Assembly: GCF_003334405.1 (NCBI RefSeq)
Contig: NZ_QOWM01000016.1
DNA from: Escherichia coli
GTDB taxonomy: Bacteria > Pseudomonadota > Gammaproteobacteria > Enterobacterales > Enterobacteriaceae
DNA: 64,000 bases
Strand: one strand, 5' to 3'
Shown here: positions 27,752 to 28,744 of the stretch, piece after piece
Numbering within the stretch: position 1 is the stretch's first letter
Layout: each line of letters opens with the position of its first letter
The notes under the pieces: model-generated
The model's input: only the letters and a program-made list of their open reading frames with translations
Told to the model about the DNA's origin: nothing
Database searches by the model: none
Position numbers and translations under genes: made by a program

Positions 27752-27786
27752 ATGCAATTATAGATGGGGGGGATTTTGAGGGTTTC
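27752..27786 (-). promoter_or_regulatory. sigma-32 heat-shock promoter of hslVU
   Basis: Minus-strand -10 CCCCATCT (plus 27755..27762) and -35 GTTGAAAC (about 27778..27785) resemble the sigma-32 consensus CTTGAAA / CCCCATnT; a 5'-UTR hairpin CCCCGTAC-TTTT-GTACGGGG follows at 27724..27745. Confidence 0.6.
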
Positions 27787-28744
27787 AACCCCCGGCGGCG
27801 AGCCGAATGCAGTTTGTATGACCCGCCATCTTCAACCGATTGAGGGTGCTGTCTGCGTTCTCTTTGCCTTTCACCGGGCCAATGACCACACGATTCCAGC
27901 CATTGTTGGTGGTGATTTTCGAGTCAAAGCCTTCGAACGCCAGCTGAGCACGTACCGTCTCTGCCTGTTCCGCGCCTCTGAACGAACCGCACTGCACCAT
28001 CCAGCGGCGTTCGTCTTTTTTCTCCGCCGTCGGTTTTGGCGCGTCAGCGGCACGAGCAACTGGCGCAGCTTGCTGCGGCTTCGACTGCGCAGTCGTGTGC
28101 GCAGGAGTTTGCAGCAGATCCTGGTACGGCTGCTGAGAAGAAGCCGGTTTAGACTGGCGCGGTTGCGCCTGTACCGGTGCGGCTTGCGACGTACGCGTCT
28201 GCTGCTGCCAGCTTTGTTCAGTCGTACGCGACTGCTGAGCCAGGCGTTGCTGTTCCGCTAATTGCTGCGCCTGACGTTGGCGCTGTAGCGTTTGCTGACG
28301 CTGTTCCGGCGTCTGTTCATTCCACGGAACTTCAACCAGCTGCGTTGGCTGCTGGCGCATATCAGCCTGCATTTGTTCAAGAAGCTGACGTTGTTCTGGT
28401 GTCAGTTGCTCCGGCGTTTTCACTTCACCACCGGCAGAAGGTTCTGTGGGCGCACGCACTCCCGGCTGGCGACTTTCCAGCTCTTTAATGTAGCGCCAGC
28501 GTTCTTCTGGTTTTGGTGGTAGTCCGTTTCCGGTCACTTTCTGGCTTTGCAGCGTCTCGGACTCTTCTTTCTTGTGATGCGTAATGAAGTACAGACCACC
28601 GATAAAGGTCACAAGAACGGCGGCAGCAATAGCGACCATAGCGGGAGAAACCGCAGGCAGATTTCGTTGCTTTTTCCGTGAGGTGCTCTTTTTTCGCCGC
28701 GAAGGTGCCGGTTGGCTGCGGCGTACATAATCTCGTTGTGCCAC
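27785..28744 (-). CDS. ftsN: essential cell-division protein FtsN
   Basis: 319-aa ORF starting at GTG (VAQRDYVRRSQPAPSRRKKSTSRKKQRNLPAVSPAMVAIAAAVL...); Q/P-rich periplasmic region and C-terminal SPOR domain. Confidence 0.93.
   Translation of the reverse strand: MAQRDYVRRSQPAPSRRKKSTSRKKQRNLPAVSPAMVAIAAAVLVTFIGGLYFITHHKKEESETLQSQKVTGNGLPPKPEERWRYIKELESRQPGVRAPTEPSAGGEVKTPEQLTPEQRQLLEQMQADMRQQPTQLVEVPWNEQTPEQRQQTLQRQRQAQQLAEQQRLAQQSRTTEQSWQQQTRTSQAAPVQAQPRQSKPASSQQPYQDLLQTPAHTTAQSKPQQAAPVARAADAPKPTAEKKDERRWMVQCGSFRGAEQAETVRAQLAFEGFDSKITTNNGWNRVVIGPVKGKENADSTLNRLKMAGHTNCIRLAAGG

Follow-up and report, generated by a model that had tools for sequence, protein, structure and literature searches.

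The junction between ftsN and hslV raises the question of whether the sigma-32-like elements found where ftsN ends are a genuine promoter and, if so, what this means for the coding sequence that carries part of it and for the polymerases that leave ftsN. We addressed this in a 64-kb stretch of Escherichia coli DNA (hereafter, the window), whose coordinates convert to those of MG1655 by a constant offset of +4094595. As can be seen in Table 1, all the features of interest lie on the minus strand. The 3' end of ftsN reads ...GCC GCC GGG GGT TGA. Base three of the last Gly codon supplies the first T of the -35 hexamer TTGAAA (within GTTGAAAC, 27789..27782, minus strand), the TGA stop supplies its bases 2-4, and the two A that follow the stop complete it. 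A sequence-only reading of this DNA had proposed that both promoter elements overlap the end of ftsN. This holds for the -35, which shares one nucleotide with the last codon and three with the stop, but not for the -10, which is wholly intergenic and sits 16 nt downstream of the stop. A run of seven C (27772..27766, minus strand) makes up the 3' end of the spacer and the first bases of the -10, while the 3' end of the -10 is overlapped by a TATAAT that is 20 nt away from TTGAAA. The layout is general in the species, as a 351-nt query spanning the site matches 5426/5426 complete E. coli genomes, with the flanking genes annotated by RefSeq as ftsN and hslV in 5426/5426, and 5175/5426 show at least 99% identity over the 71-nt junction.

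Table 1. Features of the ftsN-hslV junction, in window coordinates
Feature	Position	Strand	Source
ftsN coding sequence, 319 aa, last codons GGG GGT TGA	27785..28744	-	ORF list, RefSeq annotation
G5 run (codons GGG GG-) flanking the -35	27789..27793	-	
-35 hexamer TTGAAA of sigma-32 promoter PhslVU	27783..27788	-	direct reading, motif search
ftsN stop codon TGA (bases 2-4 of the -35 hexamer)	27785..27787	-	direct reading
Spacer between -35 and -10, 13 nt	27770..27782	-	direct reading
-10 element CCCCATCT, sigma-32 type	27762..27769	-	direct reading, motif search
TATAAT, perfect sigma-70-type -10 hexamer	27757..27762	-	direct reading
Transcription start (A) of hslV-hslU	27753	-	SMRT-Cappable-seq
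hslVU leader, 61 nt	27693..27753	-	long-read start and direct reading
Leader stem-loop GCCCCGTAC-TTTT-GTACGGGGT, then TTGTAC	27727..27748	-	+6..+27 of the hslVU mRNA
hslV coding sequence, GTG start at 27692	27162..27692	-	ORF list, MG1655 mapping
hslU coding sequence	25821..27152	-	ORF list, MG1655 mapping

As for the identity of the promoter, we used as criteria for a sigma-32 promoter a TTGAAA-like -35 and a CCCCATNT-like -10 that are about 13-15 nt apart. The combination found here, TTGAAA-13 nt-CCCCATCT, matches both elements exactly. A search for TTGAAA-N12-16-CCCCATNT gives a single hit in the window and hits in 0/100 dinucleotide-preserving shuffles, which, together with the conservation of the pair in 59 loci (see below), rules out a chance origin; the shorter TTGAAA-N12-15-CCCCAT was found in 4/100 shuffles. 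Published genetics concern the very same bases. A clpQ(hslV)::lacZ fusion is heat-induced, its activity falls when rpoH is mutated but not when rpoS is, and a C-to-T mutant in the -10 CCCCATCT (CCCC to CCTC) is not heat-induced (Lien 2009, PMC2681174). In a ChIP-chip dataset (Cho et al. 2014), the promoter is covered by a row with SigH_404, RNAP_1891, and SigS_878, in which there is no SigD entry. SigH_404 (4119623-4121047 in U00096.2) covers the promoter at about 4120371, at the low resolution imposed by its 1.4-kb span. We conclude, with a probability of roughly 95%, that these elements form PhslVU, the promoter from which RpoH (sigma-32) drives heat-shock expression of the hslVU (clpQY) protease operon. 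The heat-shock promoter claimed from the sequence is thus borne out by rpoH dependence, by a -10 mutant that has lost induction, and by a SigH ChIP region that spans the site.

The position of the transcription start is consistent with this conclusion. In the SMRT-Cappable-seq data (Yan 2018, PMC6131387), an hslV-hslU unit is reported in two conditions at 4120362-4122348 on the reverse strand. Its start, 4122348 in MG1655, corresponds to window position 27753, which is 8 nt past the last T of CCCCATCT and therefore fits the -10 element that had been proposed. A start 71 bp upstream of the GTG was published earlier (Lien 2009, PMC2681174), which would correspond to window position 27763, inside the -10 and 10 nt off the long-read start with its 61-nt leader. 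We treat 71 versus 61 nt as an apparent counting discrepancy; an independent hslVU start was sought in Ettwiller 2016, with no match.

Since a perfect TATAAT is present, a sigma-70 or sigma-S promoter using this hexamer (27762..27757) might be the functional one, with the sigma-32-like motifs being incidental. Sigma-S peaks from both ChIP-chip and genomic SELEX are found in the ftsN-hslV spacer, basal hslVU expression persists in rpoH mutants (PMC2681174), and the authors of PMC10044804 predict that a 2-bp deletion in the C run strengthens sigma-70 promoters here. However, the mapped start is only 3 nt beyond TATAAT, which is too close, and the 20 nt between TTGAAA and TATAAT also count against this possibility, as does a sigma-70 promoter scan that calls nothing at the site. 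Moreover, mutating rpoS has no effect while mutating rpoH, or changing CCCC to CCTC, abolishes induction (PMC2681174), the ChIP row is devoid of a SigD peak, and TATAAT is not conserved outside Enterobacteriaceae whereas CCCCAT is. We therefore regard this explanation as very improbable and, on the basis of start-site distance, spacing, and genetics, we rejected a sigma-70 promoter built on TATAAT as the main promoter.

The same hexamer bears on mutations selected at this site. Heat-selected E. coli lines have fixed 1-bp or 2-bp deletions in the C7 run (PMC7750951; PMC10044804); such lines otherwise gain hslVU loss-of-function mutations, including frameshifts (PMC7750951, PMC10044804). The deletion position, published as -74/+19, is window position 27766. 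Such deletions would bring the distance between TTGAAA and TATAAT from 20 nt to 19 nt (1 bp) or 18 nt (2 bp) and, judging from these spacings, could create a sigma-70 promoter out of the two hexamers.

One implication of a -35 that contains a stop codon is that the promoter would constrain the end of FtsN, as had been claimed. For 80 hslV loci drawn from genomes representing their species, we determined the positions of the ftsN stop and of the best sigma-32 motif, and we counted junctions in the 61 Enterobacterales loci where FtsN was matched. Of these, 59/61 share an identical junction, ...GGGGTTGAAA. All 59 show GGGGTTGA, with TTGAAA starting 1 nt before the stop and followed after 13-14 nt by a CCCCAT-like element, in genera including Escherichia, Erwinia/Pantoea, Yersinia/Serratia, Pectobacterium/Dickeya, Hafnia/Edwardsiella, and Photorhabdus/Morganella. 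Within these overlapping loci, ftsN has GGT as its final codon and TGA as its stop in 59/59 cases each, and the penultimate codon is GGG wherever Gly is encoded. This contrasts with the rest of the SPOR domain in the same alignment, where synonymous variation affects 25/25 other codons whose amino acid is conserved, with major-codon frequencies of 0.27 to 0.87, and where 3-4 different codons occur in each of five other conserved Gly columns. Because these codons come from the same sequences, and hence from the same phylogeny, the fixation of GGT and TGA points to selection at the nucleotide level. We infer from this comparison that the fixed codons are probably held by promoter function, and the claimed constraint on the C-terminal coding sequence of ftsN is upheld.

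Could these bases be kept instead by selection on the FtsN C-terminus or on the stop context, the overlap being a neutral by-product of genome compaction? The Gly-Gly end of FtsN is indeed conserved at the protein level in 56/59 loci, but this would not account for the fixation of synonymous sites and of the stop codon amid 25 other conserved codons that vary. Furthermore, FtsN ends otherwise in Budvicia, Vibrionaceae, and Alteromonadales, with TAA, TAG, or TGA as stop, and TTGAAA keeps its 13-14-nt distance to CCCCAT everywhere. Consequently, we give protein-level selection hardly any credence.

Promoter function remains our preferred explanation, although the known sigma-32 consensus does not explain all of the fixed bases. 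The four G located 5' of the -35 hexamer (27789..27792, minus strand), which include one synonymous site, are invariant in 59/59 overlapping loci, whereas most free-standing hslVU promoters of outgroups carry CC or CCC at this place. A hairpin between the G run and the C run around the -35 (GGGGG-TTGAAA-CCCC) was considered and rejected as a general feature, because Yersinia, Serratia, and Photorhabdus lack the CCCC that comes after the hexamer. As a separate observation, a Pantoea symbiont of Nezara viridula (locus L070, about 1400-1500) has kept the junction ATC AGG GGT TGA AAC and a full sigma-32 motif 66 nt before hslV; the E. coli FtsN C-terminus was not matched at this locus by tblastn.

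Outside of the overlapping loci, the same promoter is free-standing. In Budvicia, Vibrionaceae, and Alteromonadales, it is found 17-400 nt after the ftsN stop. Vibrionaceae and Alteromonadales display the same gene order and the same motif upstream of hslV, TTGAA(A/T)-N13-14-CC(C/T)CA, which is flanked by CC/CCC rather than GGGG and is usually preceded by a hairpin and a T-run. For example, in Vibrio and Photobacterium the ftsN stop is separated from the promoter by a canonical terminator made of a hairpin and a T-run, and Budvicia has a strong hairpin in this interval in addition to a leader hairpin. No separate terminator was found between ftsN and the promoter in Enterobacterales with the overlap. 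In the genomes compared, the overlap coincides with the loss of the separate ftsN terminator that is present in outgroups. The junction of Budvicia (loci L039 and L041, 1290-1500) deserves a separate description. There, ftsN ends in ..GG|A AAA TAA or ..GG|C AAG TAA and is followed by about 105 nt with the strong hairpin, after which the sequence resumes with ..AA|GGG TTGAAA. Judged by its sequence, this arrangement resembles what an insertion into the G5 run would leave behind if the ancestral junction had been an overlapped one. In Vibrio sp. Hep-1b-8 (locus L067, about 1030-1498), the ftsN-hslV spacer is 468 nt long and contains roughly 20 tandem CTCGCCT heptamers directly upstream of the hslVU promoter.

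The overlap also affects transcription. With its stop inside the -35, ftsN has no space for a terminator of its own before the promoter begins, and hence a polymerase coming from ftsN or cytR would always cross PhslVU. The sequence-only reading had ftsN transcription passing through the promoter into hslVU unless it terminated inside it. The first part agrees with the ftsN-hslV-hslU read-through transcripts reported in the SMRT-Cappable-seq data (PMC6131387). As for the second, no terminator is present within the promoter, and the only terminator-like hairpin belongs to the hslVU leader, past the start site. Maps of 3' ends give a mixed picture. Although cytR-ftsN transcripts ending after ftsN and before hslV are reported in the same long-read data (PMC6131387), the Term-seq tables (Adams 2021) contain no minus-strand RNA 3' end in the ftsN-hslV spacer. 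We propose that, once polymerases from ftsN or cytR have crossed PhslVU, a fraction of them would continue into hslVU and provide basal co-transcription, while the remaining ftsN transcripts would end at the leader hairpin or be trimmed back to it. The 3' ends of ftsN would then form at or near this hairpin. Transcription from PhslVU itself starts at A 27753, and the GC-rich stem-loop at +6..+27 protects the resulting mRNA.

The leader hairpin is well defined. It is part of a 71-nt stretch, 27760..27690, with a folding energy of -21.8 kcal/mol (z = -2.5), and this GC-rich stem-loop is the sole stable structure in the ftsN-hslV spacer. Its pairing is kept while its sequence drifts, with compensatory changes in 7/9 pairs across 41 Enterobacterales sequences, and most loci preserve its spacing from the -10, and hence from the start site, at +5 to +9. 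Rfam RF02401 (ClpQY_promoter) matches 27690..27747 with a score of 63.6 bits (E = 6.9e-13), covering model positions 1-57 of 57 and exceeding the gathering score of 42. With the full model matched and a stem-loop that covaries, this is the same leader as the Rfam family, which represents a transcribed leader rather than a DNA promoter and adjoins the promoter on its downstream side. Deletion of the hairpin lowers mRNA level and half-life (Lien 2009, PMC2681174), and a stem with swapped sequence but preserved structure restores hslVU mRNA half-life (PMC2681174). This is reminiscent of the ompA/papA type of 5'-terminal stem-loop stabiliser (cited in PMC2681174), which likewise has a stable hairpin near the 5' end (+6 here), and the likeness extends to the shortened mRNA half-life when the hslVU hairpin is removed (PMC2681174). 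However, unlike stabilisers of that type, the hslVU hairpin is also in the path of upstream ftsN transcripts, and it may therefore double as the 3' end of these transcripts, a candidate role.

A stronger version of this idea is that the hairpin (27748..27727) is primarily an intrinsic terminator of ftsN, which would insulate ftsN from hslVU and make read-through negligible. In Enterobacterales it is the sole stable hairpin between the two genes, a canonical terminator follows ftsN in outgroups, and the long-read data include the cytR-ftsN transcripts that stop before hslV. In 16/41 aligned species (e.g., Tatumella, Rosenbergiella, Pectobacterium, and some Pantoea), the 8 nt after the hairpin contain at least 5 T. 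However, no such T-run is found in the other 25/41 species, which include E. coli and most Enterobacteriaceae. When a terminator is defined as a GC-rich hairpin plus a T-rich run, the E. coli tail TTGTACTC falls short with 4 T in 8, and the hairpin was not called by a terminator scan of the window. The read-through transcripts in the SMRT-Cappable-seq data and the lack of a minus-strand 3' end for the spacer in the Term-seq tables also argue against insulation. So do the conserved +5 to +9 placement of the hairpin in most loci, which would suit a 5' stabiliser, the coexistence of an upstream hairpin with the leader hairpin in Budvicia, and the experimental demonstration of the stabilising role (PMC2681174). 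A primary role as ftsN terminator is thus unlikely.

More tentatively, we can envisage the junction as a shared module constrained in both directions, which combines a dual-use leader hairpin with a G4-extended -35 determinant, although we would rather bet against this than for it. The hairpin may then serve the ftsN mRNA as a 3'-end former or protector and the hslVU mRNA as a 5' stabiliser, with a termination efficiency that may depend on the promoter from which the polymerase originates. Similarly, the G4 that encodes the terminal Gly-Gly may be a lineage-specific extension of the -35 that replaces the CCC flank of free-standing sigma-32 promoters.

How much of this is new can be stated simply. 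The promoter is the known PhslVU/PclpQY, with the same elements, rpoH dependence, and C7 run (PMC2681174, PMC10044804), and these papers credit earlier descriptions to Chuang 1993 (cited in Lien 2009, PMC2681174) and Nonaka 2006 (cited in PMC10044804). Lien 2009 (PMC2681174) nowhere mentions ftsN or terminators, and our literature search on the overlap between the ftsN stop and the promoter, or its conservation, found no discussion of it. The promoter and the Rfam leader are therefore already known. That the promoter shares bases with the ftsN stop holds true and is old, but it is ordinary and largely documented. The increment is descriptive only, namely that the overlap is conserved across six sampled Enterobacterales lineages and would fix the last two codons and the stop of ftsN. 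It is a clean, textbook-style case of a regulatory element written into the last codons and stop-codon choice of a neighbouring gene and held for the whole history of Enterobacterales, which has little importance beyond annotation and will not surprise a specialist. In practice, C-terminal tagging, truncation, or recoding of ftsN, and 3' scar deletions, would destroy or alter the hslVU heat-shock promoter, and basal hslVU expression would be coupled to cytR/ftsN transcription through read-through.

Finally, three minor observations concern the leader. Term-seq (Adams 2021) places an RNA 3' end on the plus strand at window position 27752, which is 4122347 in MG1655, and assigns it to the ends that are antisense to ftsN. 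It lies just past the palindromic leader hairpin and 1 base from the minus-strand hslVU start, and it could either mark the end of a genuine antisense RNA or arise artefactually from the abundant hslVU 5' end. A small ORF starting from an ATG at 27750 was ruled out because this ATG is not conserved in relatives. The GTG start of hslV, in the context CTCGTG/CCCGTG (window 27690..27692), is kept in 40/41 aligned Enterobacterales leaders, Edwardsiella having an ATG.
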